Positions 18,092 to 64,000 of a stretch of DNA of 64,000 bases are shown here, one piece after another. The position numbers were made by a program, and so were the translations under genes. The stretch lies in assembly GCA_045595945.1 (NCBI GenBank), contig JAZOBL010000011.1:852-64851 (forward strand), given 5' to 3'. The DNA comes from Faecousia sp. Its GTDB lineage: Bacteria > Bacillota > Clostridia > Oscillospirales > Oscillospiraceae. How positions within the stretch are numbered: position 1 is the stretch's first letter; each line of letters opens with the position of its first letter. Under the pieces are notes generated by a model, which had not been told where the DNA came from, did no database searches, and saw only the letters and a list, made by a program, of their open reading frames with translations.

Positions 18092-18104
18092 CCGTTTTCT
18101 ATTT

Positions 18105-18294: not shown

Positions 18295-18499
18295 TCAAGG
18301 CATGGGACTTCGTTCCCATGCCTTTCTTTATGACTACTTTGCAGATTTCACAAATTTTGAGGGGATTCCTTTTCTATTTCCTATATATTTGAAAGAATTC
18401 TCTTGCAACTGGCGGAAAAATAGGTTATAATAGCTTGGTCTATGTGCCGGTCATGCGGCGCATGAGTTTACCATTCGGACAATGAGAGGAATTGATTAC

Positions 18500-43053: not shown

Positions 43054-43069
43054 GCATAGCGTACAATAT

Positions 43070-43111
43070 GCCCTGGTAGCTCAGTTGTATAGAGCGGCCG
43101 CCTCCTAAGCG
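43070..43111 (+). pseudogene. tRNA-Arg(CCT) 5'-half fragment 1
   Basis: GCCCTGGTAGCTCAGTTGTATAGAGCGGCCGCCTCCTAAGCG, then no T arm or 3' acceptor strand. Confidence 0.82.
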
Positions 43112-43162
43112 TGAGTAGGAGCATTTCTCAAATTTGTATAAACCACTGTATTTCTTGAATAT

Positions 43163-43202
43163 GCCCCCGTACCTCACCAGGATAGAGGGTCCGCCTCCTA
43201 AG
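43163..43202 (+). pseudogene. tRNA-Arg(CCT) 5'-half fragment 2
   Basis: GCCCCCGTACCTCACCAGGATAGAGGGTCCGCCTCCTAAG, truncated just after the anticodon loop. Confidence 0.8.
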
Positions 43203-43244: not shown

Positions 43245-43321
43245 GCCCCCGTAGCTCACCTGGATAGAGCGTGCGCCTCCTAAGCGCAAGGTAGTGAGTC
43301 CGAGTCTCGCCGGGGGTGCCA
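43245..43321 (+). tRNA. tRNA-Arg(CCT)
   Basis: 77-nt cloverleaf: GCCCCCG/CGGGGGT, D arm GCTC/GAGC, TGCGC-CTCCTAA-GCGCA, T stem GTGAG/CTCGC, encoded CCA. Confidence 0.9.
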
Positions 43322-43356
43322 AACACCGTGATTTCACCGTAAATCACGGTGTTTTC
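43321..43356 (+). terminator. Terminator after tRNA
   Basis: AAACACCGTGATTT/AAATCACGGTGTTTT. Confidence 0.82.
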
Positions 43357-43450
43357 ATAACTATTTGTCCCATTATTAAATTGTTATCTCTTGTCCACTT
43401 GGCAGCCCCAGCTCTTACGGGCTGCCAAATGGATTCGAACACTTTTTAAG

Positions 43451-43483
43451 ATTTTTGCTAACAAAATCGCATTTTTGCTAACA
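43451..43483. repeat. Direct repeat ATTTTTGCTAACA x2, putative integrase arm-type sites
   Basis: Exact 13-mers at 43451 and 43471 between tRNA and integrase. Confidence 0.65.
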
Positions 43484-43505: not shown

Positions 43506-44900
43506 TTATCCGGACACATTTGCATTCGTAAGCCCGTTAAGGAGGGCCAACAGTGCCGGATTTTGCTGCAGCTGAACCAGCAGCTGCACGATATCCATAC
43601 CTGGCTGTTGTACGGGTTGCGTGCGGAATGACTGCTCCAACCCACGCAGATCAGCTCTGGAATAGAAGCCTGCCTCAAAGCGCTGGGCATTGACCTTGCG
43701 GTCCTCATCCAGAATGTGGGCGTAAACCTCGGTGACCATATCAGGCTGTGCGTGGCCCGTATCGCCCTGTGTTGCCTTGATGTCTCCGTGGTTCAGCTTC
43801 AGCTTATAAGTCGTGCTGGAGTGCCTGAGGGAGTGGAAAACCACATCCGGAAGGTTTGCGTTCCTTTTCAGTCGGTTGAAGGCATTGCCGATTACCCGAT
43901 CCTCGCAGGGACGGCCGTTGTCGAGGGTGAGAACTAGATTGTAATCATAGTAGGCATCCCCTAAGTAAGCCTTTGCCTTGTCCTGGCTTTCCTTCCAGGC
44001 TCTCAGCAGTCTGGCAAGGGTCACCGGGATCCACACCTTTCGGATACTGGATTCGGTCTTCGGCTTCTTCAGTACCAGCCGGGTCTTGGACTTGCCGTTA
44101 ACAACAGCCGGGAAAGTAAAGAATATGTCATTCTCTCCCAATGCATCAACTGCACCCTCATCTACACGGGCCAACACCTTCTCAACCTTGAGGTAGGCAT
44201 TGCCGTTCATGATCGCCGCATCCGAAATATCCAGGCAGTCCCAGGTAAGCCCACAGATCTCCCCAAAGCGGAGAGAACACGCAAAGGCAAGATGGATTGC
44301 TAAGTACAACCGATCGTCCTCGCAGGCATCCAGTGCCCTACGAATGGTCTCCGCATCCCAGATTGCTCTCTTCCTCTGCTCCCGCTTAGGCAGGGTTGCC
44401 CCAATAAAGGGATTTCTGCCAACCATACCCCAGCGGATCGCCTGCCCAAAAGCACAGCGCATCAGCTTGCAGATCTTCTCGATGGTACAAGGTGTGACGA
44501 ACTCCGTTTTTGCCCTTCTTCCATTGCAGTCCACCGCTTTGGTTTTCTGCAATGTGGCAATGAACTTGTCCACCACCCGGGCATCCACATCCTGAACATT
44601 TACCTCACCCAAAACGGGGTTGATATAATTACGGATCAGTCCCGAATTGGAGGTGTACATAGACAGCCCCCACTTCCGCTTGCCATACATATCCACAAAA
44701 TCAACGAGAAAATCCTTGATCTTTATGCTGGCTGGCGGAATGAATGTACCGGTGTCGATCTCATGCTCGACCTCGCTTTTACGTTTTTGGGCTTCCTTCT
44801 TGGTCTTAAACGACTCCCATTTTTGCTGGGAATTACCGTTCGCGTCATCATAGCGAAAAACTACATAGAAATTTTTTCCTCGCTTAACAATTGTCGCCAT
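43506..44900 (-). CDS. Tyrosine recombinase/integrase
   Basis: N-terminal arm-binding domain; LRFGEICGLTW (R), PKTESS (K), FHSLRHS (HxxR), GHAQ...EVYAH (H, Y). Confidence 0.95.
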   Translation of the reverse strand: MATIVKRGKNFYVVFRYDDANGNSQQKWESFKTKKEAQKRKSEVEHEIDTGTFIPPASIKIKDFLVDFVDMYGKRKWGLSMYTSNSGLIRNYINPVLGEVNVQDVDARVVDKFIATLQKTKAVDCNGRRAKTEFVTPCTIEKICKLMRCAFGQAIRWGMVGRNPFIGATLPKREQRKRAIWDAETIRRALDACEDDRLYLAIHLAFACSLRFGEICGLTWDCLDISDAAIMNGNAYLKVEKVLARVDEGAVDALGENDIFFTFPAVVNGKSKTRLVLKKPKTESSIRKVWIPVTLARLLRAWKESQDKAKAYLGDAYYDYNLVLTLDNGRPCEDRVIGNAFNRLKRNANLPDVVFHSLRHSSTTYKLKLNHGDIKATQGDTGHAQPDMVTEVYAHILDEDRKVNAQRFEAGFYSRADLRGLEQSFRTQPVQQPGMDIVQLLVQLQQNPALLALLNGLTNANVSG

Positions 44901-44920
44901 AACACTACTCCTTTACATGA

Positions 44921-45118
44921 TTAGTTTCCTCGACCGTCTAACCATGCATCGAAGGGCTCCTTGGGAATCCGGATCAAACTACCGACTCGGATCACCGGGA
45001 AGTATTCCTTCTTGATAAGCTCGTATGCACCGGTACGGCTGATCCGCGCTAACTTCGCGATCTCCTCCACCGTGTATACCCGCTCATTCGCGACATTGTT
45101 TTCCTGCAACTTACTCAT
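44921..45118 (-). CDS. xis: Excisionase-like HTH protein
   Basis: YTVEEIAKLARISRTGAYELIK..FPVIRVGSLIRIPK; AAAGGAG RBS; directly upstream of integrase. Confidence 0.85.
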   Translation of the reverse strand: MSKLQENNVANERVYTVEEIAKLARISRTGAYELIKKEYFPVIRVGSLIRIPKEPFDAWLDGRGN

Positions 45119-45327
45119 AAAAACTCCTTTCTTCGGGCAAGCCACAGGTACATTAGTATTATAACATACCGTTCGACTCCCCGAAACTAAATTCTTTGTA
45201 AACTTTTTTCTTCATGGTATGATTTCTCTTTCAACTAGGATAAATATTCAATGAACTTGCCTATGGTTCTATTGTTTTTCCTAAAATTCATCACCTCAAC
45301 AATTACGCAGCACTAATAATCGAATAC

Positions 45328-45478
45328 AAAAACGCAGCAAGTCTTAACAGAACCTGCTGCGGAGAAATCACTGTATTCACCTGTTTTTGATTCGTGCCGA
45401 ATCGATAAAAGGCATCTGTGTATCTAATAATATCGATCCGTTTTTCCGGGTATCAAACAGGGCCGCTGCTTTATCTGT
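45328..45478 (-). ncRNA. Candidate sRNA unit 1
   Basis: Promoter P1 upstream; long stem CCTGTTT..ATCGATA/TATCGAT..AAACAGG; terminator 45328-45361. Confidence 0.45.
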
Positions 45479-45484
45479 AATTCC

Positions 45485-45513
45485 ATCCTATCACAGATTT
45501 ACCCGGATGTCAT
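45485..45513 (-). promoter_or_regulatory. Promoter P1
   Basis: ATGACA-17 bp (containing ATCTGTG)-TAGGAT. Confidence 0.5.
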
Positions 45514-45595
45514 CGGCATTTTCCTGCCAATTTCCTGCCAATTTTGTGCCACAATTCTGTCAAAATGTTGCCAAATTATTTTACCAGTTTTGCCA
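45514..45595. repeat. TGCCA-like pentamers phased at 11 bp
   Basis: 45525, 45536, 45547, 45558 (TGTCA), 45569, 45591; weak copy at 45514. Confidence 0.8.
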
Positions 45596-45596
45596 C

Positions 45597-45819
45597 AAAA
45601 ACAAGGACCGGGAGGATGGCTACAAGCTTTGCCTGCACGTCTGCAAACATCACTTCGGCGTAGCCAGCACTCCCGGGGCAATCGATTCGAAGACCTTCAC
45701 CGATTATGGACCGCTACTCCTTCTTTCGCTGGTCCGTACCGTTCCACTGTCACCCGACAGTGTCAAACGGTGGGCGCACTTCCACCGAGACGGTAGCCTG
45801 GGTGCTTGATCTTGCCTTA
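45597..45819 (-). ncRNA. Candidate structured RNA unit 2 (~220 nt, GC-rich)
   Basis: Promoter P2; several stems; long 3' hairpin followed by TTGTTTTT. Confidence 0.55.
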
Positions 45820-45824
45820 GTGAT

Positions 45825-45853
45825 ATTATAGCACAGATGTTCGACAAAGTCAA
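45825..45853 (-). promoter_or_regulatory. Promoter P2
   Basis: TTGACT-17 bp (containing ATCTGTG)-TATAAT with extended TG. Confidence 0.75.
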
Positions 45854-45956
45854 TTTAACTCCCGTTCCCAAATGAGTCTGGGAGAGAAATTGCAAAATAT
45901 TTTTTCAATTTTCAAGATACATTTGAAATTCAAACAATCAATGGGCATCAATCCTC

Positions 45957-46240
45957 TCTACATATAAAGATGCATTCAAAAACACGATTTGTTCCATTTT
46001 GGCGAAAATTTTTGAAAAAATTTTTCTATAACTATAAAAACGCTTACAAAACGATGTTGTCTTCCAACTTGGCGAATTTTTTCAAAATTTACCCTTCTAC
46101 TTATAAAGAGGCTTGTAAAAACGCATTTTCTATCACTTTCCCGATTTGTTTACAAAAAGTTCACAAACGGTCATGCTTCTTTCCGTTCTACTTATAAAAA
46201 TGCTTTAAAACTGCAAAATCTGCCACTTTGATAAAAAATC
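45957..46240. repeat. Four degenerate direct repeats, core TCTACWTATAAARA.GC...AAAA
   Basis: Cores at 45957, 46025, 46096, 46187. Confidence 0.65.
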
Positions 46241-46330
46241 CCCAAAATTTATCCATCAATTTTATTACACGATTCATCTGCCCAAAATGCAACTAAATAT
46301 GAAAAATATTTCTAACAATTTTCAAATATT

Positions 46331-46521
46331 AAAAGGTGCAGACCTTTCGTAGGCTGCACCTTACTTAAAAATGAGAATATTCGAATCCGAGATTGACTGG
46401 ATCTGTGTATGCATAGCCATATAGTACGTAAGATACTACGCAAGATAAGCATATATCCCGATCATCAGTGGTTGTATATACGAGAAAACTGGGGCTTCAG
46501 TACGAAGTCCCAGTTTTTCAT
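46331..46521 (-). ncRNA. Candidate sRNA unit 3
   Basis: Promoter P3; 5' hairpin AAAACTGGG..CCCAGTTTT; terminator AAGGTGCAG..CTGCACCTTTT at 46331-46362. Confidence 0.45.
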
Positions 46522-46527
46522 ATTAGG

Positions 46528-46594
46528 ATTATAACACAGATGTTCTGCCAAGTCATTGTCATTCTTCTGCCAATTTTATGCCACCATTTTGCCA
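46528..46594 (-). promoter_or_regulatory. Promoter P3 with 11-bp phased TGCCA array
   Basis: ATGACT-17 bp (ATCTGTG)-TATAAT; pentamers at 46546, 46557, 46568, 46579, 46590. Confidence 0.7.
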
Positions 46595-46686
46595 AACCAA
46601 CTACTATTTCATGTCCCAAAAGAATTACCCACCCGCCTAATCAGGCAGGCAGGCAACTTTAAATAAACTAACAGACAAACAGTCAA

Positions 46687-47280
46687 TCATTGAAAATGAT
46701 AGATGTTTTTCATTTCCTCTAATAGTAACAAAACATTTTTTTCGCTTGTCCTAATTTTGAGAACATCGTTCTCGTGATATATGCATACATAGTTTTCTTC
46801 GGAATTCTTTCTGCTTACTATCTCTGTTCTAATATCTCGAATACTCGCAGAGGGAATTACTGCCACATCTGTACCCTTCATATAGAAGACAAGTCGCTCA
46901 TTGAATCTCAGATCTCCACCTTTTGTGTAAGTACTCTTCTTCATCGCAGCGATCATTGTGCCAATCATATCTGCATCACCTATAGCATACACATTCTGCA
47001 ACATCTTCTTGTACTCAGTATCCTTAACAAAAGACACAAGGAACAGAAATGCGGATACAACAAAGATCAAGCCTAGCAAAAGTAGAAAGCAGGAAATAAG
47101 CCAGTTGGGAATCGGAATGCCGCTTCTTGATCCACGAATACCGATTCTCCATCCAGTTTCAGAGGAAAATCCATTTGAAATAGCGATCCAAGAAAATAGG
47201 GCGGCCAATAATAAAAATAAAATCGCACTACACAGATTTTTGATTTTTAATTTTGCTCTGAGTTTATTAAAAAAGTCCAT
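46687..47280 (-). CDS. Membrane protein, 2 TM plus soluble C-terminal domain (DUF6709-like)
   Basis: Hydrophobic pattern; GGGAG RBS; family assignment tentative. Confidence 0.6.
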   Translation of the reverse strand: MDFFNKLRAKLKIKNLCSAILFLLLAALFSWIAISNGFSSETGWRIGIRGSRSGIPIPNWLISCFLLLLGLIFVVSAFLFLVSFVKDTEYKKMLQNVYAIGDADMIGTMIAAMKKSTYTKGGDLRFNERLVFYMKGTDVAVIPSASIRDIRTEIVSRKNSEENYVCIYHENDVLKIRTSEKNVLLLLEEMKNIYHFQ

Positions 47281-47361
47281 AAAACAGTCTCCCATTGAGC
47301 TACAGCACGGCATATAAATATCTCCTAATCTTTAGCCTATGCCCTTAGCGTAAAAAACATT

Positions 47362-49452
47362 TCATTTTACTTTTGCATCTATTTCGGACGCAGAAATAAG
47401 TTTGCCGAGATCTTCATAATACTTAATCCCAAGGCCTCTCTCAACATTTGCAAAACCGCAATTTTCCACATTGAAAGCATACCCTTCCTCTGCTGAACAA
47501 TTACCAACAATGCCGCCAAGTTGATTGTCCCAAATCACTTCACCTCTATGATTTTTGTACTTATCTTCGGCAGGGACATTGAACATACCGTTGCTATAAC
47601 AGCCTGAAATCTTTATCAAGGCATCATTGGCATTCACGTTGGCACTATCACCTTGATCTGCAGAGGTAGACAAATATAAGGTCTCACCAATTCTTCCTAT
47701 AATACCGCCACACATTCTCGAAAGATTCATTGTTTTATCGCTATTGATTGTTTCTTCAGAGGGGGCCTTATCATCAACAGAAAGTGTGCCTGTATTTATA
47801 CAGTTTGTTATTTCAGAAGGGACTCCTTTAAGTCCGAAACCTCCAACAATTCCGCCAATGAAAGAATTACTGCTATAAGTGAAAATTTCACCTTTATTTA
47901 TGCAACTGTTGATTTTCAAAGATGCTTCATCAGAAACAGATAGCGTTCCGGTACTATTTATAAATCCAATAATACCACCGCCGCTTTCGGGCGTCGTGAT
48001 TTTTCCTGTGTTGGAACAACCATTCACAAGCAGTTTCGCACTTATATCACCAAATACATAAACACTACGAATGATTCCACCAGCGTATAATTCAGATGAT
48101 TGGATATCTCCGGAATTAACACACTCTGTAATGCTAACATTTCCGCTTGTGGGGGTTAGCTTGCATACAATGCCTGCAGATAAGCCATCAGACATCGCTG
48201 CTGTATTTGTACAGCCTGATATTGTAAGCTCTGCGCCACTGCAAGATGCATCTGCAACGATTCCAGCCTGACTGCTACCAGATACTATTTTTGCATTATT
48301 AATACAATTATTGATTCTAACGAAATAATCGCTTCCGCTATTGGACGCAGAGGCAACGATACCTGCCGCCATCATTCCGCTAAAAATATCACCATTGTTT
48401 TCACAATTACTAACAGATATATCTTTGTTGCTGTATTCATTGCCACCAATTTTGGAGCTATATAAGCAACCAACGATTCCACCCACTTTATTTCCAAAAG
48501 TGTCAATAGGCCTATCTTCTACAGCTTCGCCATTGTCACAATCGAGGATGCCATTATTTATGCAATGATCCACTTTTCCATCATCCAAACGACCAACGAT
48601 GCCACCAGCATAATCAATGGCAATAAGCCCAGAAGTGATGGTTCCATTGTTTATACAATTTGATATCGTACCAGAACTTTTTCCAGCAATTCCGCCTAAA
48701 TAATTGTATGTATAATCACGAAGTTCTTTAATTGCTCCGGAATAAGATGTTGTTTCAACTAGACCATAATTTGTTCCAACGATACCACCGCAAACAGCGT
48801 CATAACAGTCGATAATAGCATTAGACTTACAATTCGTGATGATACCTTCTTTGCCGTTGTCTCCAGCGATTGAACCAATATCTCTAGAAAGACCAGAAAT
48901 GCAAATATAAGAGTTTTCAATATTCACATTTTTGATTACGCCATCGTTATTGCCAAAAAGCCCATACTTATTTGTTGTTTGATCATCTCTGCAATCGGCA
49001 TTGATAAATAGTCCATTAATAGTATGGCCCCCGCCATCAAACACGCCTTCAAAGCTGTAATAATAGATACCAATAGGATTCCAAGAATACTCCGGTGCAG
49101 TACTTGCCCAAGTATCCGCATTACTGCCCTCGTTGATTGAAATATCGGCTGTAAGTTTATAGTATGCTTTTCGATAATCACTACCAACCTTAGAATTGTT
49201 TATCAACTCTGATAGATATGCTAATTCTTCTGCAGTTGATATCTGATACGGGTCTTCTTCCGTGCCGCTACCACCTGCAAATGTATCTGCAGCTTTGATG
49301 TATACAGGTTCAGCCAAATCCCGATACTCGTATTCATATGTTACCGGTTCAATAACATTTGAATTGTCTTTGTCGTTTTTGTTGCAACCCGCAAAGGAAA
49401 ACGCAAAAAGCGACACCAGCAAAAGCGAAGTTATTCTTCTAAATATTTTCAC
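47362..49452 (-). CDS. Lipoprotein with GLUG-like beta-helix repeats
   Basis: GTG start, lipobox FAGC; GSGTEEDPYQISTAEEL; repeated GGIVG...I.NC.N.G.I. Confidence 0.8.
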   Translation of the reverse strand: MKIFRRITSLLLVSLFAFSFAGCNKNDKDNSNVIEPVTYEYEYRDLAEPVYIKAADTFAGGSGTEEDPYQISTAEELAYLSELINNSKVGSDYRKAYYKLTADISINEGSNADTWASTAPEYSWNPIGIYYYSFEGVFDGGGHTINGLFINADCRDDQTTNKYGLFGNNDGVIKNVNIENSYICISGLSRDIGSIAGDNGKEGIITNCKSNAIIDCYDAVCGGIVGTNYGLVETTSYSGAIKELRDYTYNYLGGIAGKSSGTISNCINNGTITSGLIAIDYAGGIVGRLDDGKVDHCINNGILDCDNGEAVEDRPIDTFGNKVGGIVGCLYSSKIGGNEYSNKDISVSNCENNGDIFSGMMAAGIVASASNSGSDYFVRINNCINNAKIVSGSSQAGIVADASCSGAELTISGCTNTAAMSDGLSAGIVCKLTPTSGNVSITECVNSGDIQSSELYAGGIIRSVYVFGDISAKLLVNGCSNTGKITTPESGGGIIGFINSTGTLSVSDEASLKINSCINKGEIFTYSSNSFIGGIVGGFGLKGVPSEITNCINTGTLSVDDKAPSEETINSDKTMNLSRMCGGIIGRIGETLYLSTSADQGDSANVNANDALIKISGCYSNGMFNVPAEDKYKNHRGEVIWDNQLGGIVGNCSAEEGYAFNVENCGFANVERGLGIKYYEDLGKLISASEIDAKVK

Positions 49453-49515
49453 AACATTCCCTCCTAAAAGACCTATATCTGATAAATGTTCCAATCAAAA
49501 CACAGGACAAGTTAA

Positions 49516-50334
49516 TTATACGTCGGAAGGACTATACTGATATTTAATACTGCTAATAGTAGTTCCTTTACCATCTAAATACACAGAGATACTGCTATAA
49601 CCATTATTTAATTGTTCATGATAATAGAGTTTAATCTCATTATCGTCCCAATCATAGTCAATGGTAGTGGGGTTGCCAAGAGCACGAATTATGTCAGACA
49701 TCGTAGAGCTTTCTGTGATAGTTCCACAAATTGTATATTTGGAAACGTAACGTGCATCAAGCTCTATTGTAAAGAATTGGCAATCAGATAGGTTAGCATA
49801 TGCTTCATCACCATCAACCAAATTTTGTGTCCAAAGTATAATTTTTTCGCCAGTACCATTGGTAAAATAAACACCGGTTTGCACTTTGTTGCTAACTTGT
49901 TTGTCTGCTGCGGTTTCTGTGTTCCACTTCAGGTTCTCCATTTCAGAATACGTAACAGGCAACTTAATTTCCGAGTTATCCGCAAATTTAATAAGATAGT
50001 CAAAATTATACTGTTCTGCATAATCAGATTCCAGACTATATTCAACGGAATTACCATAACCTTCTTCCAGGCTCCAATCCTTATATTCATACTTTGATGT
50101 ATCAATCAAGGATGCGATAGTATCGTTGAAAAAATCCTTTTCTGAAGCTGTGCTAGTATTGTTTTCTTCGTTGTTTACCGTACCTTGTGTACCCGCATTA
50201 TTATCCTGAGTAACATTGGTACTCATATTATTACCCTGAGCATCATTGGCATCTGCGTTACCACCACATCCGGTCAATGCTGTAAGCATCATCACAAATG
50301 CAAGGATTCCCGCTAATAATTTAAACTTTTTCAT
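49516..50334 (-). CDS. Lipoprotein, function unknown
   Basis: Lipobox LTGC; N/T-rich linker. Confidence 0.8.
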   Translation of the reverse strand: MKKFKLLAGILAFVMMLTALTGCGGNADANDAQGNNMSTNVTQDNNAGTQGTVNNEENNTSTASEKDFFNDTIASLIDTSKYEYKDWSLEEGYGNSVEYSLESDYAEQYNFDYLIKFADNSEIKLPVTYSEMENLKWNTETAADKQVSNKVQTGVYFTNGTGEKIILWTQNLVDGDEAYANLSDCQFFTIELDARYVSKYTICGTITESSTMSDIIRALGNPTTIDYDWDDNEIKLYYHEQLNNGYSSISVYLDGKGTTISSIKYQYSPSDV

Positions 50335-50472
50335 ATAGATTACCTCTTTCTTATTTATGTGCTTCCTAAAGTTTTCACAAGCTCTACGATTTTATCTTTA
50401 TACTCTTTTGTGGCTTCGCACCGGTATGTCGAGTTATTGATACGAGCAATTATATGGAACTACCCGCAGGCA

Positions 50473-51087
50473 TTAATTTACAAACAAGGGTGCTCTCTTC
50501 GAGAAATACTTGCGGTTAAGCAGAATAATGACAATAGACGCGATCAAAGAAGTTATGCTATTAACAGAAAAAATCTGGTTTAGTCCAGTAATGGCAAACA
50601 AGGCAATGCTGTAGAAAAGGGATAAGACAATCCCTGTGCCATAGACAATATAGACACACATAGGAGCATTTGCTTTGTACTTTGCAAGTCTGGAGCGGGT
50701 ATAGATACCAAAGCCAGCAAGCACAAGCAGTACAATGCCATATATGACATCCAAAGCCTTCAATCCCATGCCGTAAATGCTGTAAACCATATCAGCAGTA
50801 ACCTGACCATTGGATTGCGAGAAATAAATACCGCCAGATATGTAATTAAAGCCGAACACAAAATTCACAAACGCTCCCAGGAATAATGCGAAGTAAATAA
50901 GAAACTTGAACCACTTCATTTTATACTGCACAACTGGTTCTGCCGGAATATAACCTATCGTCGGCTGCTGCTGACTGTATATAGGCATACTATTTGTAAT
51001 CGGTGCACCAATTTGTGCACCACAATTGGTGCAAAACTGTGCACTTTCGTTTTCTATTTGTGCACCGCAATTACTACAAAAACTCAT
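50473..51087 (-). CDS. Zinc-ribbon domain membrane protein
   Basis: FCSNCGAQ..FCTNCGAQ plus 4 TMs. Confidence 0.85.
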   Translation of the reverse strand: MSFCSNCGAQIENESAQFCTNCGAQIGAPITNSMPIYSQQQPTIGYIPAEPVVQYKMKWFKFLIYFALFLGAFVNFVFGFNYISGGIYFSQSNGQVTADMVYSIYGMGLKALDVIYGIVLLVLAGFGIYTRSRLAKYKANAPMCVYIVYGTGIVLSLFYSIALFAITGLNQIFSVNSITSLIASIVIILLNRKYFSKRAPLFVN

Positions 51088-51121
51088 AAGCTAAGACCTC
51101 CAATCTCTTTTGTAAGATACC

Positions 51122-51868
51122 TTATTTTTTCTTTCCAACCAAGAATAGCACGATACCAGATCCCAGCAAGCCTAATATAATTACTAGCCCGGGGCTAAGA
51201 AGTGTTTGATTAATCAAACCTACTGTCAGCAAGAAGGCTCCTAAAATCATCAAAATAATACCCCAAATTCGTTTTGCCTTTTTCCCAACATTGGCTGCTT
51301 CGGGGTTGAGTTGCTTATACCTGGCTTTCTGCTCAGCGCCATAGCCAAGGACAATATTCGGAGATTGCGGAATAATATAGTTCTCGAGAAGCCACTTAAA
51401 TTCATCTGCGTTGGCATTCAATGCAAACTTTTTACCATCTTTTGTATAGATGATTACCGCTTTTTCAACAGCAATACCGTATGCACGTCTTTCATATAAG
51501 TAAACCCAAGCCACTTCAGAATACGGAATAATTGCACATGGTTTTTTGCAAAAGAAAGCCCTTTGTCCGCAGTATATTTTCGAACGTGGAAGAGTAGGTC
51601 TTTCAAGTGATATATCTTCAATAAGGCTTTCCAACCCCTTCGCTATTAACCGCTTAACACTGTTTAGAAAAGGTAGAAAAGAAGTAAAATAAATTACTCC
51701 ACTAATCCACAGAGCGTTAGCCAAAAGCGTCGCAGGAATGATCACCAACTCTATTTCCTCGACAAAACCCATAGATGCATAAGCGATTATCGTAAGTATT
51801 AACAAGATAAGCAAACAAATGCGAAATACTTTGTCAGATTTATATTTCTTTTCTATAAAATCACTCAT
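51122..51868 (-). CDS. Membrane protein (DUF6709-like)
   Basis: 2+2 TMs; IIPYSEVAWVY...IYTKDGKK. Confidence 0.65.
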   Translation of the reverse strand: MSDFIEKKYKSDKVFRICLLILLILTIIAYASMGFVEEIELVIIPATLLANALWISGVIYFTSFLPFLNSVKRLIAKGLESLIEDISLERPTLPRSKIYCGQRAFFCKKPCAIIPYSEVAWVYLYERRAYGIAVEKAVIIYTKDGKKFALNANADEFKWLLENYIIPQSPNIVLGYGAEQKARYKQLNPEAANVGKKAKRIWGIILMILGAFLLTVGLINQTLLSPGLVIILGLLGSGIVLFLVGKKK

Positions 51869-52497
51869 TGTTTCTTCTTCCTCGCCTTCACAATTTGAAC
51901 GATGTTGCTTATAGTTGCGATGAAACCAAAGACATATGCAAATACGAGATCTCCTGCGACAGCCTCGCCGATCTCCGGTTCAGCAAGGAATTCCGGAGTA
52001 GCTCTAATCGCATCAAAAATTGTGATCCCTTGATCCTTGTAAACCTGAAAGATTTCAAAAGAAATACAGAAGAATTCTGCTGCGTAGATCATTACGATTG
52101 TTGCAATAATTGCAGAAATAAGTCCAACCATGGATGCTTTGTTTTTTGTCTTCGAAAACAAACCGTATCCGAAGTTTGCTAATACAAATATTACCAGACC
52201 ACAGATACCCGCAATAATACCAATTTGATAAATGATAAAATATAAAAGTCCGCCTAAAATAGAAAACAAAAACGCTCCAACAATACCAGCAAGAATATTC
52301 TCACTGCCATTTGTATCGTCAGCGGTATCTTGTACAGTCTCCACTTGATATGTAGGATTAAAAATTGGCGGATATGATTGTACTTGATCAAACTGTTGAA
52401 CAGATGCAGATTGTGCAATCAAGTCGGACGAACCGCATGATGGACAAAACTTAGCATTATCTTCAGTTTGTACCCCACAGTTGCTACACATTTTCAT
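51865..52497 (-). CDS. Zinc-ribbon domain membrane protein
   Basis: CSNCG..FCPSCG plus TMs (NILAGIVGAFLFSILGG). Confidence 0.85.
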   Translation of the reverse strand: MKMCSNCGVQTEDNAKFCPSCGSSDLIAQSASVQQFDQVQSYPPIFNPTYQVETVQDTADDTNGSENILAGIVGAFLFSILGGLLYFIIYQIGIIAGICGLVIFVLANFGYGLFSKTKNKASMVGLISAIIATIVMIYAAEFFCISFEIFQVYKDQGITIFDAIRATPEFLAEPEIGEAVAGDLVFAYVFGFIATISNIVQIVKARKKKQ

Positions 52498-52557
52498 TCG
52501 AAGCCACCTCAATTCTTTTTAAGTAGAACTATGTCCTTCTTGAGCAAATAGATTAAT

Positions 52558-52583
52558 GGGCAGCAGCAATGTAGCTGCTGCCC
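52558..52583. terminator. Hairpin after the giant surface-protein gene
   Basis: GGGCAGCAGC/GCTGCTGCCC; weak T-tail. Confidence 0.55.
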
Positions 52584-52590
52584 ACGAATT

Positions 52591-55500
52591 TTAAGCTTTT
52601 GCTGCAGTCTTGTTCTTCTTATCCTTCTTGCGTTTGATCAGGAATACGATCAAGCCGGCAACAGCCAGAACACCAACGATGGTGCCGACAAACAGAGGAG
52701 TATTTGCGTAGAAGATAACCAACTGATTCTGAGAAACTGTTACTCTCTCGAACAGCTCGTTATACTCATTTGTCAGATCCTCTGCGTTAACTGCGCAGTC
52801 GTTGCAGACGATCTTAACCTGATTATTCAGGCCTTCCGGAACGGTGAAGGTAACCTTACCATCGTTTTCTTCCAGATACTTCAACAGCTCCTCGCCGGAC
52901 ATTTCAAAACGAACACTGATATCAGCGCCGCTATCGTCCTTCAAAGGATTGCCGTTGGAATCCAGAACCAGAACTGTCAAGCTGTTCAATCTGCCACCCT
53001 CATCGGTGGGGATCAGTGTAACAGTCTGAGCATTAGTCTGGTAACGACCGCCTGCTTCCAAACCGGTGATGGTCAGGACAGGCTTGGTCTGGTCAACCAC
53101 AAACGCCAGAGAGAGGTTCTTGACGTCACTGAATGCGGTGGTGGCAGTTTTATCGGTAGAAGTAACGATGATGCTATACTCACCCTCAGCCTCGAACAGA
53201 GACTTCTTGATGGTATAGGTGCGCTTGCTCCACTCGCCATCCTTAGAGGTCTGAGTTGTGGTGTAATCGGTACCCTCGGTGAGCTCCTTGCCGTTCAGAG
53301 AAACCTTGTACTCTTCGATGGGATCAACATTGACTTCCACGATCACCACATCTTCATCAACGCTGTAGATGTAGTACTGGCCGACCAGTTCCTCAGTGAA
53401 CTTGTTGCCATAACCGAAGGCAGAGCCGTTGCGGTTGACAGAGAACTGAACCTGATCGTAGCTCTCGCCATCGTCAAGGACGATTTGAGACATACCATTG
53501 GCAGACATATCCTTAACCTCACAGGTCAAGGTATAGAAGCCATCATCTGGCAGATCCTCAATGGTGTAAGTGTAGGTCTGACCGTTGACGACGGTTTTTG
53601 CGTCGCCCAGGTCAATATCCATAGTCACATACACACCCTCTTCCTTCTGTACAACGGCCTTCAGAACAGGCTTGAGGGAAGAAGCATCCAGGTTGGTGTC
53701 ATTGACGGTGATAACAAAGCCGTACTTTTCATCCTTGTTTGCAGAGTTGGCCTTAATGTTAGAAACCTTAATAGTAGGCTTAGTTGCATCCAAAGTCAGC
53801 TCATTGGACTTATAGGAAGTCATCTGGTTGCCAGACTTATCCTTGTACTGTACGGATACGATGTAATCGCCATCCTTGGTCAGTGTAAAGGTGCCGGTAT
53901 GGGTATCCACACTATCGTCCTTCCAGGAAACATTGACCGGGAAGTTTTCACCGTCCTTAGTAACAGTAACGACTACATCCTTTGCATCGAAGTTAGCCTC
54001 ATTGATTACGATAGTGGCATTGATATTGCCATCGTAATAGGAAATGCCGTTAGCTGTCTGGACAGGTGCGTTGTAAGTAATCTTGGAGGTGGGAGTGATG
54101 TTATCCACGACGATTACTGTGCTGTCCTTCAGCTCTGTAGTGATTTCACTGCGGTCAAATGCAGTGAACTCAACAGTGCCGTTGAACTGGTTATCGGCTC
54201 CAAGAACCATCTTGGGAATGTTGAAGGTTGCAGTAGCCTTCTTGCCGTCATAGGTGATTTCTGCTTCTTTAATTGCCTGATCCAGCAGTTCAGCGTTGAC
54301 ACCGCTGACATCCTTACCCTTGATGTAGCTATAAGCAAAGTGGTAGATGCCGGAAGTGTCGTCTTCTGCAGTGATAGTCACAGTCATCATGGCATTGTAG
54401 TAGCCGAAGGTGATGGACTCCTTGATCTGCTCAAATACGCTTGTGCTGTAATCAACAGTCAGATTCTTGGGAGCAGTAACGTCAACTGTGAACAGGTCCT
54501 GCTCGTAGTCAGCAGCCACATTCTTTGCCAAATCCTGATACTCAATATCGAAGGTATAGTTAGCATCAGTGGTGTAGTTCAGAGTGATGATGAACGCATC
54601 ATCCTTCACACGCCAAGTACCAGCCTCGTAAGAAGTCCAGCTCTTGCGATCTGCGCCCTGATCTGCATAAGCCTTTACAGTGCCATCAGCATTCAAAGTC
54701 AGAACATCGGCGTTCAGAACATCCTTAGCGGTCACCTTAATGACAACATCATCAGCGCGGAAGTTGTGTTCCTTAATGGTGATGGTTGCCGTCTGTGTTG
54801 CAGAGAAGTAGTCGCGGTTCTCGATGGTGTTCTTAACATCGGTGTTGGAATACTTTACATCGATTACAGGAGCGGTCTTATCGACCACGATCCACTGAGA
54901 TAGGTAATCAACAGGGGTATTCATGGAGTGATCCTGATAATACACCTTGAGCTGATAATCACCCTCTGCAGGAATCGTCACAGTCTTCGTATGAGAATCA
55001 GCCTTGCCTGCTTCTGTAACGGTTGTCCAATCGGTCTGAGTCCAACCCTGAACAGCATCACCGTTACCGTCGAGCACTTCAATCTTAACGACGGAAGGAT
55101 CAAAGTTCGCTTCGTCGATCTTGATTGTCGCTACAGCGTCACCGGAGAAGTACATAACATAAGAGGAATCGGTGCTAGTGATGTCAGTAATGCCGTTAGC
55201 AGCGTCGAAACCAGTCATATCCTTCATGTCGGAAACATTCACAACATTAGAGGGATTGTAGGAAATGGTATGTCCGGGAGCGATGGTATCAACTACCAGC
55301 ACACCGGGATCTGCATGAGAGTCGCTGTGGTTGCTAGACTTGTCGTAAGCAACAAAGCTAATCTTGCCACGGAACTGTGCAGGAACATCAAAGGAAAGTG
55401 TCAGGTCGCCATTGTTAGCGCTGCTGCGAATCGTTCCAATGAAGCCCTTAGTGCCGGACTTGACAGAACCATCAGCGTTTACTACCAAATTCTCAGGCAT

Positions 55501-58500
55501 AACCAGGTTGGTAGCAGAAGCAGGGCCCTCGGGGGTAACAGTCAATTCAATGTAATCAATACCCGCGGTAGCATCAGTCATTGTAAGAACAACTTCCTGT
55601 GCAGCCTTATAGTTGCCGAAGGTAATTGCATTCAGAATCTTGTTCAGAACCTGTGCATCCTTAGACTTGTACTCAACTTTCAAGCCGGTGGGGATCTTGG
55701 TATCAACAGTGAACTCTGCGTTGTAAACTTCTTCAACATTGTCCTTGTTTACCATCTTATGGTTAGCAAGATCGTCATAGGAGAAGCTTACAGTGTAATT
55801 TGCATCGGGTGCAAAAGGAACTGTTGCTGTCCAAGTAATACCGTCAGTGCCCTTGGTCCAATCACTCCAGGACTTCAGATCGGAATAGGTGTAGGTAACA
55901 GCATTGCCGGCAATATCAGTTGCGGTAACATTGAATACAACCTCATTAGGACGGAAGTTCCGGTCAGTAACCTTGATGGTAGCCTCCCGGTTGGCCTTGA
56001 AGTAAGCTCTGCCATTTAAGGTCTGGATAACTTCATTGTTGTCGTAAGTTACCTCATAGACAGGAGCCTTGGTGTCAATACTGTGGATATTGGACTCGTA
56101 GTTATATACGCCACTCTGCGCATACTCATTGGAACCCTCATTGGACCCCCATTCCATATCATTCAGGGAATGATCCTTGTAAGAAGCCTTGATACGATAA
56201 TCGCCGTCATCCTGCAGCACAATTGTTCTGACATAATAGCCAGCGGCATCAGGCTCATTACTCCATCCGGAGTCAGTGAAACCGGTGGTTACCGTCTGTC
56301 CATCACGAATCACTGTGATGGGCATATCGATTTCCTTGAAGAAGTTCGCTTCTTTGATCTTGATGGTTGCGGTTACATTGCCATTGTAGATGAAACGAGT
56401 GGTTGCATCGGGAGTAGACATTGTTTCTCGGGTGATAGTGTTTCCAATGTCTGCCTTTACAGAGTCCTGACGGTCACCAGTGAACTCAATAACTACATCG
56501 GGAGCAATGTCGTCAACTACGATCTCTTTTTCCTCAAAAGTCTCCTTGTTCCACATTGCTTTGTCGTAAGCATCTGCATAGATAGTTCCGCGGAATTGTA
56601 CAGGAACATCAAAACTTAGGGTCAAATTGTCAGAATTGCCAACGACATCAATATTGCCGATGAAGCCCTTCTCTCCAGTTCTAACAGTGCCATCTGCGTA
56701 AATCTCCAGATTAATAGGCATCGTCAAAGTAGTCGCATCAGAGGGTCCTGCAGGATAAAGCGAAAGCTTAATAAAGTCTACGCCACTGGTAACATCGCTA
56801 GTCTGTATGGAAACACGAACGGTTTCCTTGGAGAACCCAAACAGTTTGCCCAGGATTATCTCGTCCTTAACGGTTTTGTAGGTAATGACAGGAGCAGTAG
56901 GTGCAACCTTATCCAGCGTAAACTCTGTCGCATATTCATCCGCAACCCAATCCAATACATCTGTGAAATTAACCGTTACAGTGTAATTGCCATCCTTTGC
57001 AATGTCGAGGGTTAGCTGATGCTTGTCAGTTCCTGCAACAGGAATCCACTTGTCAGGATTCTTAGCGAGATCTGCAAACGCCTGAATTTCAGCTGCACTC
57101 AGAACAGCAGCACCCTTGCTATCTACAGCACTAATTGCCAGGTTGACCTTATCTGCATCGAAGTTGTGCTCGGTAATTGTCAGAACAAAGTTCTGATTCT
57201 CGGTATAGTATTTTCCGTTCTCAATGGTAGATTCAATTACAGGCTTTTTCCGGTCAATACGAACCTCGGATTCATAGGTAACTTTTCTATTGCTGCTATC
57301 GGGGTTATTTTCGTCATACAGGCGGTCTGCGAACTCAGCCTTAATAATATAGTCGCCTTCCTCTACCAAATCGAAAGTCAATTTGCCAGATGTAGCGTCA
57401 AAAATCCACGTTGCCTCGGCATCGCCATTCATCAAAACAACAGGTGTTGCCTCATTGTTACGAATTACAACAACTGTTGGATCAACTTCACGCAAATCAA
57501 AGTTCTCATCGGTGATTTCAAAAACAACCTTAACACCGTCTTTGCTCTTGACATAACGGATGCCATTAGTAGCTTCGTCGTCCATGCCACCAGAATACAA
57601 AACTGTTAAACCAGGCTCAGTATGATCGACAATCAAAACAGCATCTTTATCGTCTTTCAGATGCTTATAAACCTCAGCATTGCCAGCTACATCGGTAGCT
57701 CTCATCCAAAGTTGACGGCGGTACTGCGAAGGAACGGAGAACTCATAGTTGCCATTAGATGCAGCAATCTCTGTGTAGGTATTGCCTTCGTCTAAGCTGT
57801 ATTCCATCTTGCCAATACCGGACAGCGAATCAGCAGCAGTAACAGTGACCTTTACTGTAGATGCATTAAAACCAAACAACTTTTCTCCAATGGTTGCCCA
57901 AACACTGACATCGTAGGAGATTGCAAGTCCATTAGGCTTCACAGTGTCTCTCTTCAGGTCAGATACAGGAATGGCATCGGTGATAGCACCGGTTTTGGAA
58001 TTCTTCAGGTACACAACAGGCTCAGAGCCAGCTGCCCAAGTACCAGTTTCTCCATCAATCTTCCACTCTACATAATTTTCCCATTCGTTATCAGTCAAAT
58101 CATTGCTATAGCTGATCTGATAATCATTGGGGGCATAGATTTTTACATCACCAGTAAACCATGAACTACCACTGATAATCTTATCGCCATACAGAGCATA
58201 AGGAGTCGAAGGGGTTGATTCGTAGTCAAGCGTAATGGTATAGGACTTTGAACAAGCCTTATAGCAATCATCCTCAACCATAGTGACAGTAACAGTCACT
58301 GTACCAGCCTTGCCGGTGGAGTTTGCAAAGCTTACCAAACCGGAGCTATTCACCGTAGCACCAATCGTATTATTGGAAACAGCATAGGTGATCACACCGC
58401 TGTTCAGTGCAGAGGGTGTAATCTTTGTTTCAAAGGAAGTCAGGCCATACTTTTCTTCGATTGCTTTGTCGTGAACGAAGGTGAAGTCTTGCTCATCCTT

Positions 58501-61221: not shown

Positions 61222-61721
61222 TTTGTACTCTCTCCTTTATCTGTAGAGTTCGCTTTCTTTTGTTCCAGCACCTGCCGGACCTTGATCTGATTTTTTGCGT
61301 GGAAGTATATCCTTCCATTCAATACACAGTGCATACAAAAGGAAAAGATAGTAGTTGCTATGAAGATGTAGCATATGTATCCATATCCTTTTGTGAGTAT
61401 AAAAGCCAAGATCATTGCAACAAAACTAATTATCATAGATCTATCTGCAATAATTGCTGCCGCGTTTGACCCGAACGAAAGCAATCCGTTCTTTGGCTTT
61501 TGCATTTTCTTCCGTTTAACTGTGTATGACTTGAAGAACGCCCGGCGCCTAACCTCTAAAACTATCTGTAGTATGAGGCCAAGCACTAAGCTAAGCCAAA
61601 ACAGCAAACCAGGAAGAATGGTTATTGACTCAATGGGCATTAGTAAGAAGCTGATAGACATTATCAGAAAACATCCTACAGATACACCCAAAAGTATCCG
61701 ATCAATTTGTCTTTGCTTCAC
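61218..61721 (-). CDS. 4-TM membrane protein
   Basis: Four hydrophobic segments; overlaps start of giant gene. Confidence 0.75.
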   Translation of the reverse strand: MKQRQIDRILLGVSVGCFLIMSISFLLMPIESITILPGLLFWLSLVLGLILQIVLEVRRRAFFKSYTVKRKKMQKPKNGLLSFGSNAAAIIADRSMIISFVAMILAFILTKGYGYICYIFIATTIFSFCMHCVLNGRIYFHAKNQIKVRQVLEQKKANSTDKGESTK

Positions 61722-61732
61722 CAGACTGCCTC

Positions 61733-62257
61733 CTATGCGATCACTTCACTAGTGTGAATGAAGGTAATCTCATATTCAACAGTAAAGGCTTGAACAGGCT
61801 GCTCTGCAGGAGCAAGGACCTCGGTTTCACCAGCAACGGGAGCTAGAACATCTGTTTCTCCAGCAGCAGGCGACAAAACATCGGTCTCACCGACAGGCTG
61901 ATCCAACACATCTGTTTCTCCAACAGGCTGTTCAAGCTCCATAGTGGAGATCTTCTCAGTAATAACACCTGTTCCAAACGGCGTTGCATCTCTAGGCATA
62001 AGACGTCCGGACTGAGAAATCTTATCTGTGAGCTTTCCGCGCTCTAGATTGACCGCACTAGACTGGTAGGTCTTATCGCCAGACTGTTCATTCTGCATCC
62101 GAATGTTTTCTATCGCTTTTCTGGCTGTTCTACCGGTCAAGTCGCTGATAACCTTCGGAATTTTTAGTGTAAAGAACAGGACAACTGCAATCGCGAAGAA
62201 AACACCACAAGCAATCAAAGCACCAAGGAATATGTATCGGTACATTTCATACGACAT
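61733..62257 (-). CDS. Single-TM protein with four GET(D/E)VL repeats
   Basis: N-terminal TM; 10-aa tandem repeats; GGAGG RBS. Confidence 0.8.
   Translation of the reverse strand: MSYEMYRYIFLGALIACGVFFAIAVVLFFTLKIPKVISDLTGRTARKAIENIRMQNEQSGDKTYQSSAVNLERGKLTDKISQSGRLMPRDATPFGTGVITEKISTMELEQPVGETDVLDQPVGETDVLSPAAGETDVLAPVAGETEVLAPAEQPVQAFTVEYEITFIHTSEVIA
61811..61930. repeat. Four 30-bp tandem repeats (QPVGETDVL-type)
   Basis: Visible in protein and DNA with synonymous divergence. Confidence 0.85.
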
Positions 62258-62269
62258 ATCTATCCCTCC

Positions 62270-64000
62270 TTACTGCGCGGTCTGCACTCTGCTGATTGTC
62301 TCAGCAGTAGATGCTTGCAACTGTTTAACCAGATTCTGAATGTCAGGACTGGAATTATCAATCGCAGCAGCACCATTCTGAATTTCCTGCAGAAGTGACG
62401 TCAAAGTAGCGGGATCCGTAACTTCGAGGAAGTCACTGATATTGCCGTTTACTAGACTGTCAATTTCGATCCAAACCTGCAGTTTGTAGTCAGTTACATA
62501 ACCTTCTGCTTTCGACTTTAGGTTCTGAAGCATCTGCCAAAGGTTCTCGCGCTGTTCCTTCAGCGCTTGAGTCTGAATAACCTTACTACCGTGCAACTCG
62601 TTGATCTTGGTCGTACACTGAGAAATGTCACAGAAGATAGCGGCAATGCTGCCATTATCGGTGCCATTGTCCCGCATATACTGGAACCACTTAGCTGCGT
62701 TGGCATATCTGTCTCTGTCAATACCGGTATCGTAGTAGGACAGAAGGCTCCAACCAATGTTGAAGCATACCTCATCATAGCCGGCAGGATTAGCCTCTTT
62801 CAGTTCTGTCATAGCATCAATCGTTTGAATGAAGCCACCGGCACCAGCTTGATCAAATCCCGCAAGCAGCTTCTGAATCTGCTTTCCTTCTTCTTTTGTC
62901 AAAATATAGTCGGAAGTCAGGAACTCGTTAAGCTGCAGATATGCCTCAGTACGGGTGGGATCGGTCATGATCGCTTCGTAGTAGTCTTCAACAGACTCTG
63001 CTTCCAAAAGGATCTGATCGTAGTTTTCGCCCTTCTTCTGTTCTGCAGAAAGGTAGCCCCAAATGGAAGTCAATCCAAACACTAAAGACAGCACCAACAT
63101 TGCGATGAATGTAGTCAGCTTCTTCTTTTGGCGTTTCTTGAAATCCTCATCTTCCTCCAGATAATGTTCCAATGCGAACATCAGCTCTGCAGCAGATTGA
63201 TAGCGGTCGTTAGGGTCTCGCTGGCAGCATTTTAAGATGATTTTTTCAAGACCTGCGGAAAGACCGGGGTTAATATCTCGAATGGGTTTAATTTCGTAGG
63301 GAGGCTCGCAGGGGTTCATACCGGTTACCAAATGGTAAAGAGTTGCACCCAAGCAGTAAATATCGGTTCTGGCATCCGTCTGACCCATACCGCCGAATTG
63401 TTCCGGAGCAGCATAGCCAACCGTACCCAAGCAAGTGGTATCCGCCAGATTTTTTTCTTTGTACTCACGAGCTGTACCGAAGTCGATCAGCGTTACGTTG
63501 CCGTCAGGCTTCAGCATAATATTTGCCGGTTTCATGTCACGGTAGATAATTGCCGGTGTTCTTGTATGCAGGTAGTTCAGAACATCACAGAGCTGCTTTG
63601 CCCAAATAATGACATTCTCCTGCGGCTGGGCACCGAATTCCTCCAGTGCCTTGTTCAAGGAGTTACCCTGAATGTAGTCCATGATAATGATGAAGGACTC
63701 ATCCGTATCAATAACATCAATGATGCTGGGCAGGTTGGGGTGGCTGAGCTTCTTCAGAATATCTGTTTCTGCCACAAGACCCTGTTTAACAACCTCGAAG
63801 TCCCGGACACCGTCCTTACGGACTTCCTTAACTGCCCATTGTTTATTCGCCTTTTCGTTCATGGCGAGGTAAACAACGCTCATACCGCCCTGACCGACTT
63901 TGTTTAGTATTTTATACTTGCCGTCAACAAGTGAGCCTATTTCAGCAGGTGTATGCATATTTTTGAGTGGAATTGAAATAAGAACCGTTGGAACGCCTGC
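62270..64000 (-). CDS. Hanks-type membrane Ser/Thr kinase; reading frame open to window edge
   Basis: GQGGMSVV, AVK, YRDMKPAN, DFG, APE; TM; helical ectodomain; 14 extra in-frame codons upstream of ATG 63958. Confidence 0.92.
   Translation of the reverse strand, partial: AGVPTVLISIPLKNMHTPAEIGSLVDGKYKILNKVGQGGMSVVYLAMNEKANKQWAVKEVRKDGVRDFEVVKQGLVAETDILKKLSHPNLPSIIDVIDTDESFIIIMDYIQGNSLNKALEEFGAQPQENVIIWAKQLCDVLNYLHTRTPAIIYRDMKPANIMLKPDGNVTLIDFGTAREYKEKNLADTTCLGTVGYAAPEQFGGMGQTDARTDIYCLGATLYHLVTGMNPCEPPYEIKPIRDINPGLSAGLEKIILKCCQRDPNDRYQSAAELMFALEHYLEEDEDFKKRQKKKLTTFIAMLVLSLVFGLTSIWGYLSAEQKKGENYDQILLEAESVEDYYEAIMTDPTRTEAYLQLNEFLTSDYILTKEEGKQIQKLLAGFDQAGAGGFIQTIDAMTELKEANPAGYDEVCFNIGWSLLSYYDTGIDRDRYANAAKWFQYMRDNGTDNGSIAAIFCDISQCTTKINELHGSKVIQTQALKEQRENLWQMLQNLKSKAEGYVTDYKLQVWIEIDSLVNGNISDFLEVTDPATLTSLLQEIQNGAAAIDNSSPDIQNLVKQLQASTAETISRVQTAQ

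Follow-up and report, generated by a model that had tools for sequence, protein, structure and literature searches.

A conserved non-coding region of ICE operon-head parts upstream of xis-int in a tRNA-Arg island of Faecousia

Positions 45328–46594 of the window (the whole 64,000-nucleotide stretch of Faecousia sp. DNA analysed here) lie upstream of xis and a tyrosine integrase gene (int) that adjoin tRNA-Arg(CCT). This cassette is a real, selected regulatory region composed of identifiable ICE parts, including a variant of a known RNA family. Its parts can be named, they are conserved and they originate from the heads of ICE operons. As to function, the reading we favour, at about even confidence and by analogy with known systems, is that the cassette would be the helper- and SOS-gated control region of a mobilisable tRNA-Arg island, with a DUF3268 RNA as candidate antiterminator. 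A preliminary description had proposed a module of an integrative element, with excision control among its possible roles, and our comparisons support a conserved, non-coding and regulatory module with a plausible link to excision; it had also proposed three co-regulated paralogous small RNAs, not recognised as a described system, and that part has to be revised.

Layout and distribution of the cassette

The features of the cassette are, in the direction of transcription towards xis:

46620–46656, minus strand: terminator-like hairpin ending the upstream cargo operon (−23.3 kcal/mol; absent from aligned relatives)
46568–46594, minus strand: TGGCA array of unit 3, 16, 27 and 38 nt before the −35, in phase with ICE promoters
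46528–46556, minus strand: unit 3 promoter ATGACT-17-TATAAT, homolog of the ICE zinc-ribbon-operon promoter (L188, L163)
46534–46545, minus strand: LexA-type box GAACATCTGTGT abutting the −10 of unit 3 (8 of 8 unit-3 alleles)
46480–46521, minus strand: first hairpin of unit 3, by homology the leader hairpin of the ICE zinc-ribbon operon
46422–46445, minus strand: tandem 12-bp repeat (TCTTGCGTAGTA/TCTTACGTACTA) resembling a protein site (alignment)
46328–46362, minus strand: terminator-like hairpin of unit 3 (folding)
45950–46232, minus strand: four 70–90-bp repeats with core TTTATA(x)GTAGA, variable in copy number (self-comparison, alignment)
45870–45882, minus strand: conserved motif CCCAGACTCATTT upstream of the unit 2 promoter (alignment; also in L290)
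45825–45853, minus strand: unit 2 promoter TTGACT-17-TATAAT with LexA-type box GAACATCTGTGC at 45842–45831 (exact box in 17 of 19 cassette alleles)
45692–45816, minus strand: divergent DUF3268 RNA, three-way junction with tandem GA/GA (RF02966 match)
45597–45676, minus strand: long CCGG...CCGG hairpin with T-run, same place and ends as the hairpin after canonical DUF3268 RNAs
45525–45595, minus strand: TGGCA array of unit 1, 16, 27, 38, 60 and 82 nt before the −35 (promoter-phase comparison)
45485–45513, minus strand: unit 1 promoter GCCG-ATGACA-17-TAGGAT, of the ICE tra/zinc-ribbon promoter class, without LexA box
45328–45478, minus strand: short transcript region of unit 1, a variable unstructured body and a conserved terminator hairpin (45361–45333; alignment, folding)
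45158–45190, minus strand: fourth promoter, extended −10 TGtTATAAT, directly before xis (divergence 0.03–0.06 in eight loci)

As first described, there are three minus-strand promoter-like sites with 17-nt spacers (46556–46528, 45853–45825 and 45513–45485), all three have ATCTGTG before the −10, the units end in hairpins with T-runs, and no Pfam-supported gene lies in the stretch. The number of promoter-like sites is itself ordinary (10 in 44000–48000 vs. 9.2 expected); ATCTGTG-N-TA-N3-T occurs nine times in the 1.67-Mb genome, three of them here. The RNA bodies are not paralogous, since neither self-BLAST nor a repeat search connects the units beyond their promoter regions and one 10-mer, and unit 2 alone is a structured RNA, one of a known family. 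The TGGCA arrays, the LexA-type boxes, the four 70–90-bp repeats and the fourth promoter before xis are additions to the earlier account. Small ORFs in units 1 and 3 and before xis were discarded; alignments show them broken by stops and frameshifts in relatives.

The 1.55-kb cassette matches 22 of the 301 genomes of the genus at E 0.001, with long matches in 16 of the 22 (the window's genome counted). Apart from the window's genome, no fewer than 15 of the 300 others carry it; all genomes compared are incomplete assemblies. The recurrences sit before xis-int at tRNA-Arg(CCT). Close relatives of the integrase comprise 22 loci from 79 pattern matches, mostly in Faecousia or Oscillospiraceae, and the allele rows aligned number eight loci for unit 3 and 19–20 for units 2 and 1. 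No plasmid or phage matched the cassette by BLAST, and a viral scan with int found no relative.

Promoters of units 1 and 3 and the LexA-type boxes

Weak BLAST matches led from the cassette to ICE tra promoters in G006 and G340:C4, which are ordered as a TGGCA array, ATGAC(A/T)-17-TGTGnTAnnnT and an operon for a VirB2-like pilin, a VirB6-like protein, NlpC/P60, VirB4 and VirD4. A pattern for this promoter class matched at least 120 metagenome stretches and one viral stretch; the 121 matches listed form 34 clusters. Among these listed matches, a zinc-ribbon gene lies downstream in 93 of 121 (16 clusters) and a VirB2-like pilin operon in about 11 of the 34 clusters; the pilin regex gave 13, of which L131 and L172 look false by eye. 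TGGCA stands 16–17 nt before the −35 in 27 of the 34 listed clusters and again at 27–29, a phase shared by units 3 and 1 of the window. Over 112 nt, the promoter and the first hairpin of unit 3 share 87.5% identity with L188. There a zinc-ribbon gene comes next, and the homology ends before the ribosome-binding site of that operon. Judged by their sequences, units 1 and 3 are copies of ICE operon promoters without their genes, and the TGGCA arrays are probably the sites of an ICE activator.

A 208–215-aa gene stands directly before the tra promoters in G006, G340:C4, L082, L096 and L126. It gives a DUF1492-like Atlas match, which we treat as a lead only, and nothing in Pfam. DUF1492 resembles the phage RinA/ArpU activators. 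The placement of the 208–215-aa gene and the known systems suggest that this ICE gene encodes the activator. By promoter class and phase, sites of the helper-activator type lie upstream of xis, this protein being their putative activator. Of 14 genomes with the cassette, 5 have the DUF1492-like gene, in each case on a different contig from the cassette; it was not found in 9 of the 14 or in the window's genome, all incomplete assemblies. A ATCGTCCAAAAGTGGG-like motif is present just past the start of most TGGCA-class promoters (L068–L188 set) and may serve as an operator or utilisation site.

Within units 2 and 3, ATCTGTG forms the interior of GAAC-ATCT-GTG(C/T), which abuts the −10. Firmicute LexA boxes read GAAC-N4-GTTC or GTTT in the available text of PMC4234289; the left half matches exactly, and the right half, GTGC or GTGT, carries one or two changes. 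Unit 1 has no box, and ATCTGTG persists in just 10 of its 20 alleles. On this comparison, our preferred reading of the shared motif is a putative LexA-type box (units 2 and 3) plus a TGTG extended −10. With a box pattern written post hoc, the sites already being in view, the geometry of box and −10 gives five matches in the window's genome—units 2 and 3, the Y-polymerase operon and a palindrome in front of an mraZ-like gene, counted twice—with 2.8 expected by chance genome-wide and 0.002 in 1.3 kb. The boxes of units 2 and 3 are placed exactly as at the Y-polymerase operon of the host. A tighter pattern yielded nine matches in three of five more genomes, namely five cassette sites, three copies of the Y-polymerase operon (Pfam IMS) and L290, and its reversed control yielded none. 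L290, at a contig end (G014:C77) that stops short of the downstream gene, is a second unit-2-type promoter, with GAACATCTGTTT and two LexA-type boxes.

A lexA gene is present in the host; in the window's genome no box was found before lexA (at most one mismatch) or within 250 nt of recA. None of the 34 ICE promoter clusters among the matches listed has a LexA-type box, and the boxes of the cassette thus look gained rather than left over. Their placement and known systems suggest that LexA would bind those of units 2 and 3.

Whole units fold better than shuffled sequences (z −4.3, −4.0 and −2.3), but units 1 and 3 have no structure in their bodies apart from the hairpins: once the hairpins are removed, the middle of unit 3 has z +0.28 and the body of unit 1 z −0.86. 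An alignment of ten unit-1 rows gives a consensus structure for the terminator only. The 12-bp repeat was also considered as arm sites of another integrase; its pattern had 45 viral matches, and a crude regex detected no integrase motif within 1.5 kb of any of them.

The divergent DUF3268 RNA of unit 2

Unit 2 matches RF02966 over the full model length with 46.5 bits (E 1.1e-7), below the gathering cut-off of 65.3, and its relatives score 33–46 bits; the region is, in this respect, related to something described. At gathering level, Rfam finds only 6S and tRNA in the whole window, the 6S RNA lying at 18100–18300. We aligned nine cassette-type and seven canonical RNAs, kin sequences whose structure was taken from Rfam and our own reading. 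The helices covary, with 12 of 17 counted pairs changing on both sides and 96.3% of cells pairing; the helix after GAC was left out of the count because of alignment offsets. These values lie above all 500 shuffles (0/500) and all slid controls. For 13 cassette alleles, 78 pairs were predicted; 12 of these carry double changes, and most of the 12 belong to the 3′ hairpin. The tandem GA/GA is kept as UUU-GA-C...G-GA, the sequence signature of a k-junction. Folding against shuffles gives z −2.5 for the core and z −4.0 for the 3′ hairpin. Across eight loci the core diverges from the window by 0.02–0.08, compared with 0.19–0.34 at four-fold sites of int (mosaicism being possible); L023 and L025 were omitted from the int comparison because indels put both out of frame.

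Canonical RF02966 copies occur above the cut-off in 1 of 151 genomes of the order, with one more just under, and in 4 of 151 genomes of the genus. All seven canonical loci with downstream sequence are ordered as promoter, RNA, CCGG hairpin with T-run, ribosome-binding site and gene; the gene is DUF3268 (Pfam-confirmed in two) and in L226 follows a short HTH-like ORF. Unit 2 has the canonical-type hairpin but no DUF3268 gene: in the 19 cassette rows, unit 1 and then xis-int follow. It shares with the canonical RNA (RF02966; 8ITS, PMC10573300) the core motifs, the tandem GA/GA three-way junction, the covarying helices, the upstream promoter and the downstream CCGG hairpin. It differs in scoring 19 bits under the cut-off, in an internal loop in P1, in the missing gene and in the LexA-type box of its promoter. 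The k-junction structure of the DUF3268 RNA has been reported, with no function ascribed in the available part of that article (PMC10573300). Two canonical DUF3268 promoters are preceded by sequences similar to the TTTATA(x)GTAGA core of the 70–90-bp repeats. In viral sequences, patterns derived from unit 2 gave nothing but chance matches in coding DNA.

In three RNA runs of a bovine study, assembled contigs cover unit 2 (summed depth 47–63, 45623–45739 bin) and xis-int. In two of them a contig that includes unit 2 continues across a divergent unit 1 as far as the xis promoter or xis itself, the contigs giving neither strand nor proof of a single transcript. Runs X1, X2, X3 and X6 cover 25–26 of 30 bins, including non-coding DNA, and look DNA-laden. 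Runs X14, X15, X18 and X22 have no contig over 45389–45505 or 46208–46441, gaps that prove nothing because unit-1 alleles diverge and contigs drop sequence.

The island and possible functions of the cassette

Beyond the cassette, the integrase end comprises:

44921–45118, minus strand: xis (HTH_17; domain search)
43506–44900, minus strand: tyrosine integrase gene (Arm-DNA-bind_4 and Phage_integrase; domain search)
43456–43483, minus strand: two arm-type repeats TGTTAGCA after int, also at the far end of the element (sequence)
43318–43428, minus strand: two strong hairpins between int and the attachment core (folding)
43245–43321, plus strand: tRNA-Arg(CCT) holding the attachment core CTTAGGAG (minus strand, 43284–43277; tRNA search, sequence)

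At 43066–43202, two extra 5′ halves of tRNA-Arg precede the full tRNA, one of them with a spacer conserved in relatives; they look like scars of repeated integration at the anticodon loop.

The site-specific int-xis pair is matched by two attachment ends. The far end, recognised by its arm repeat, is present in 10 of 15 genomes and also in the window's own, and reads tRNA-Arg 3′ half, core, arms, a T-run hairpin (−20.5 kcal/mol), a 374-aa gene, DUF6100 and a 394-aa gene. These three genes are co-oriented and have ICE homologs at 52–60%, 43–45% and 37–46%, respectively. The 394-aa protein is 37% identical to the product of an ICE gene before virD4; no relaxase family match was found for it. The 374-aa protein has no family match either, and both proteins show an N-terminal resemblance to a winged helix with Z under 8. 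In L266 (15873–18983) the 374-aa and 394-aa proteins have 1147 and 97 metagenome homologs among the matches listed. A MITE-like insertion of roughly 300 bp with terminal inverted repeats separates the far-end hairpin from the first gene in the window's genome (C27, about 25950–25670) and in L253. By tblastn, the activator, VirB2, VirB4, VirB6, NlpC and VirD4 had no match in ten far-end stretches or in the window's genome (incomplete assemblies, the window's copy not being closed), and no oriT was identified in the island.

On contig C27 of the window's genome, the far end is followed by a Tad pilus locus and FHA, PP2C and kinase genes. Because this kinase is 88.9% identical to that of the window, the C27 end is that of a sister copy and not provably the window's. 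The window's own copy meets unrelated sequence at about 63944, where (63944–64000 and beyond) the 5′ end of the kinase gene is fused to an unrelated low-GC peptidase-like frame, a deletion junction or misassembly. G934:C42 carries a 34.5-kb island with cores at both ends (43036 and 77592), the same cargo, unit 2 and a fragment of int. The cargo at 46687–63958 of the window encodes zinc-ribbon membrane proteins, a 2876-aa surface protein and a Ser/Thr kinase and is collinear with the Tad/FHA/PP2C island of G934:C42. In G439:C89 and G202:C57, the integrase end and the far end are naturally joined, with all genes oriented as the cassette promoters, a read-through geometry.

Under the helper- and SOS-gated reading, units 3 and 1 would be switched on at their TGGCA promoters by a DUF1492-like protein of a helper ICE, and units 3 and 2 would be released by cleavage of LexA. 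With the help of the DUF3268 RNA, transcription would read past the terminators into xis-int and, once the element is excised, across attP into the three ICE-derived far-end genes. An island apparently without transfer machinery of its own would in this way cut itself out in the presence of a helper element or of DNA damage, and, by placement and analogy with known systems, the helper would mobilise it. Antitermination by the DUF3268 RNA is the least certain step, for and against which we are about equally inclined within this model: a terminator-like hairpin directly follows the RNA, here and in all seven canonical loci, so that an attenuator or a stand-alone RNA fits equally well. Excision may not depend on read-through, since a conserved promoter belongs to xis itself and contigs from RNA libraries extend over xis-int. 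That promoter, the hairpin right behind the RNA, the survival of cassette parts beyond the loss of int and the oriT result speak against the gated switch. A wider claim, that DUF3268 RNAs are k-junction antiterminators of Clostridiales ICEs and that the island is an ICE stripped to its switches plus LexA boxes, a three-input gate (helper activator, SOS, RNA antitermination) coupling excision and transfer-gene expression to helper arrival, is tentative and rather doubtful.

The cassette combines the layouts of two known systems and adds LexA-type boxes. In Tn916, according to the accessible part of PMC11658703, the cis-acting RNA canT lies between orf8 and xis and carries transcription past terminator T1 after excision. 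Likened by layout and not by sequence, the cassette has a structured RNA between promoter and xis, and the island has a terminator beyond attP before the first far-end gene and genes reachable only once it is circular. Tn916, however, is self-transmissible and has its own Orf7/Orf8 region, whereas in the island a terminator-like hairpin closes the RNA itself and the search for a T4SS gave no match. In SGI1, MGIVchHai6 and MGIVflInd1, as far as the available text of PMC5397120 goes, the activator of the helper turns on xis; an int/xis island with helper-activator sites upstream of xis is common to both. The cassette differs in its Gram-positive host, a probable activator of another family (DUF1492-like), the added LexA-type boxes and the structured RNA, mobilisation being putative here. 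The conAn and zipper-type attenuators (cATT) of pLS20, likened by description only, from the available parts of PMC8191782 and PMC13401043, also place a termination-controlling RNA at the head of a Gram-positive conjugation operon, but the cassette has no conAn1-like gene and another size and fold.

The cassette may instead be a decayed ICE end, operon-head leftovers joined by deletions and no longer a switch, which we consider unlikely. In alignments its left flank varies in nearly every locus and breaks at module borders, many copies have a broken xis or int (parts persist where either is broken or gone in L013, L028, L030 and L044), and the ICE operon homology halts just ahead of the genes. 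On the other hand, unit 2 and the promoters diverge far less than synonymous sites of int, the hairpins show compensatory changes, and the order of unit 2 and unit 1 recurs in the distant L161 (83% identity in unit 2). The LexA-type boxes, absent from the listed ICE clusters, and the absence of pseudogene fragments between the modules, where none was seen, also argue against decay.

We give less weight to a decoy panel, in which the arrays and an abundant DUF3268 RNA would titrate the activator and the zinc-finger protein of a helper ICE and so dampen or exclude it. Every promoter fires into a terminator, the parts outlast xis-int and the activator gene was not found in 9 of 14 cassette genomes; contigs of one RNA study weakly indicate that unit 2 forms a peak of its own. 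Titration by DNA, however, would have few copies to rely on, one or two per chromosome, all promoters face xis-int and the far-end genes, and canT-type RNAs act in cis only, as stated in the accessible part of PMC11658703. About as improbable, or slightly more so, is an insulator or attenuator, in which xis-int is protected by the hairpins against transcription coming from the cargo. The DUF3268 leader would then be no processive antiterminator but would switch only its own adjacent terminator through a ligand or protein, being zipper-type or riboswitch-like. This agrees with the promoter-RNA-terminator-gene order in 7 of 7 canonical loci, with the predicted pairing of the RNA 5′ end with the T-run and with the zipper-type attenuators at the head of Gram-positive conjugation operons (PMC13401043, available part). 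Here, however, the leader directly controls no gene, unit 1 promoter and terminator coming next, and the pairs between 5′ end and T-run are mostly invariant and hence allow no covariation test.

Finally, it is very improbable that the units encode three co-regulated sRNAs that act in trans and use ACACAGAU to direct a protein to the promoter motif they share: ATACACAGAT, the 10-mer complementary to that motif, does occur in units 1 and 3 of this genome, as first noticed, and ACACAGAT in 7 of 8 unit-3 alleles, but the 10-mer is kept in just 7 of 20 unit-1 alleles (missing from 13), L014 and L036 alter it without compensation while retaining the promoter motif, units 1 and 3 have unrelated bodies without structure, a complementary downstream 8-mer is found in 0 of the 34 ICE promoter clusters listed, and no gene for an RNA-guided protein was seen nearby.

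The comparisons thus bring out a class of ICE promoters that is widespread in gut Clostridia, has apparently not been described before and comes with a candidate activator, and a likely satellite island that copies the class and whose cargo includes a Tad pilus locus. The gated switch, if true, would extend the hijacking of helper activators from SGI1 and the MGIs to Gram-positive gut bacteria, with an RNA layer added, and suggests a first testable job for the DUF3268 RNA. A literature search, with most subscription papers outside its range, brought up no paper that treats the island, promoters of the TGGCA class or what the DUF3268 RNA does; the name DUF3268 has no occurrence in the main text of PMC5737381, whose supplement may already hold the ICE link.

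More distant integrases (40–56%) have other upstream regions; L190 and L191 have sigma-r4/HTH-like ORFs and, by eye, a long non-coding stretch, as in the Tn916 layout. Rfam at gathering level gave no match in the non-coding region of either, bar a weak pemK in L191. This region, GC-rich and about 450 nt before xis, lies between an orf8-like gene and xis in both loci and is a canT-like candidate.
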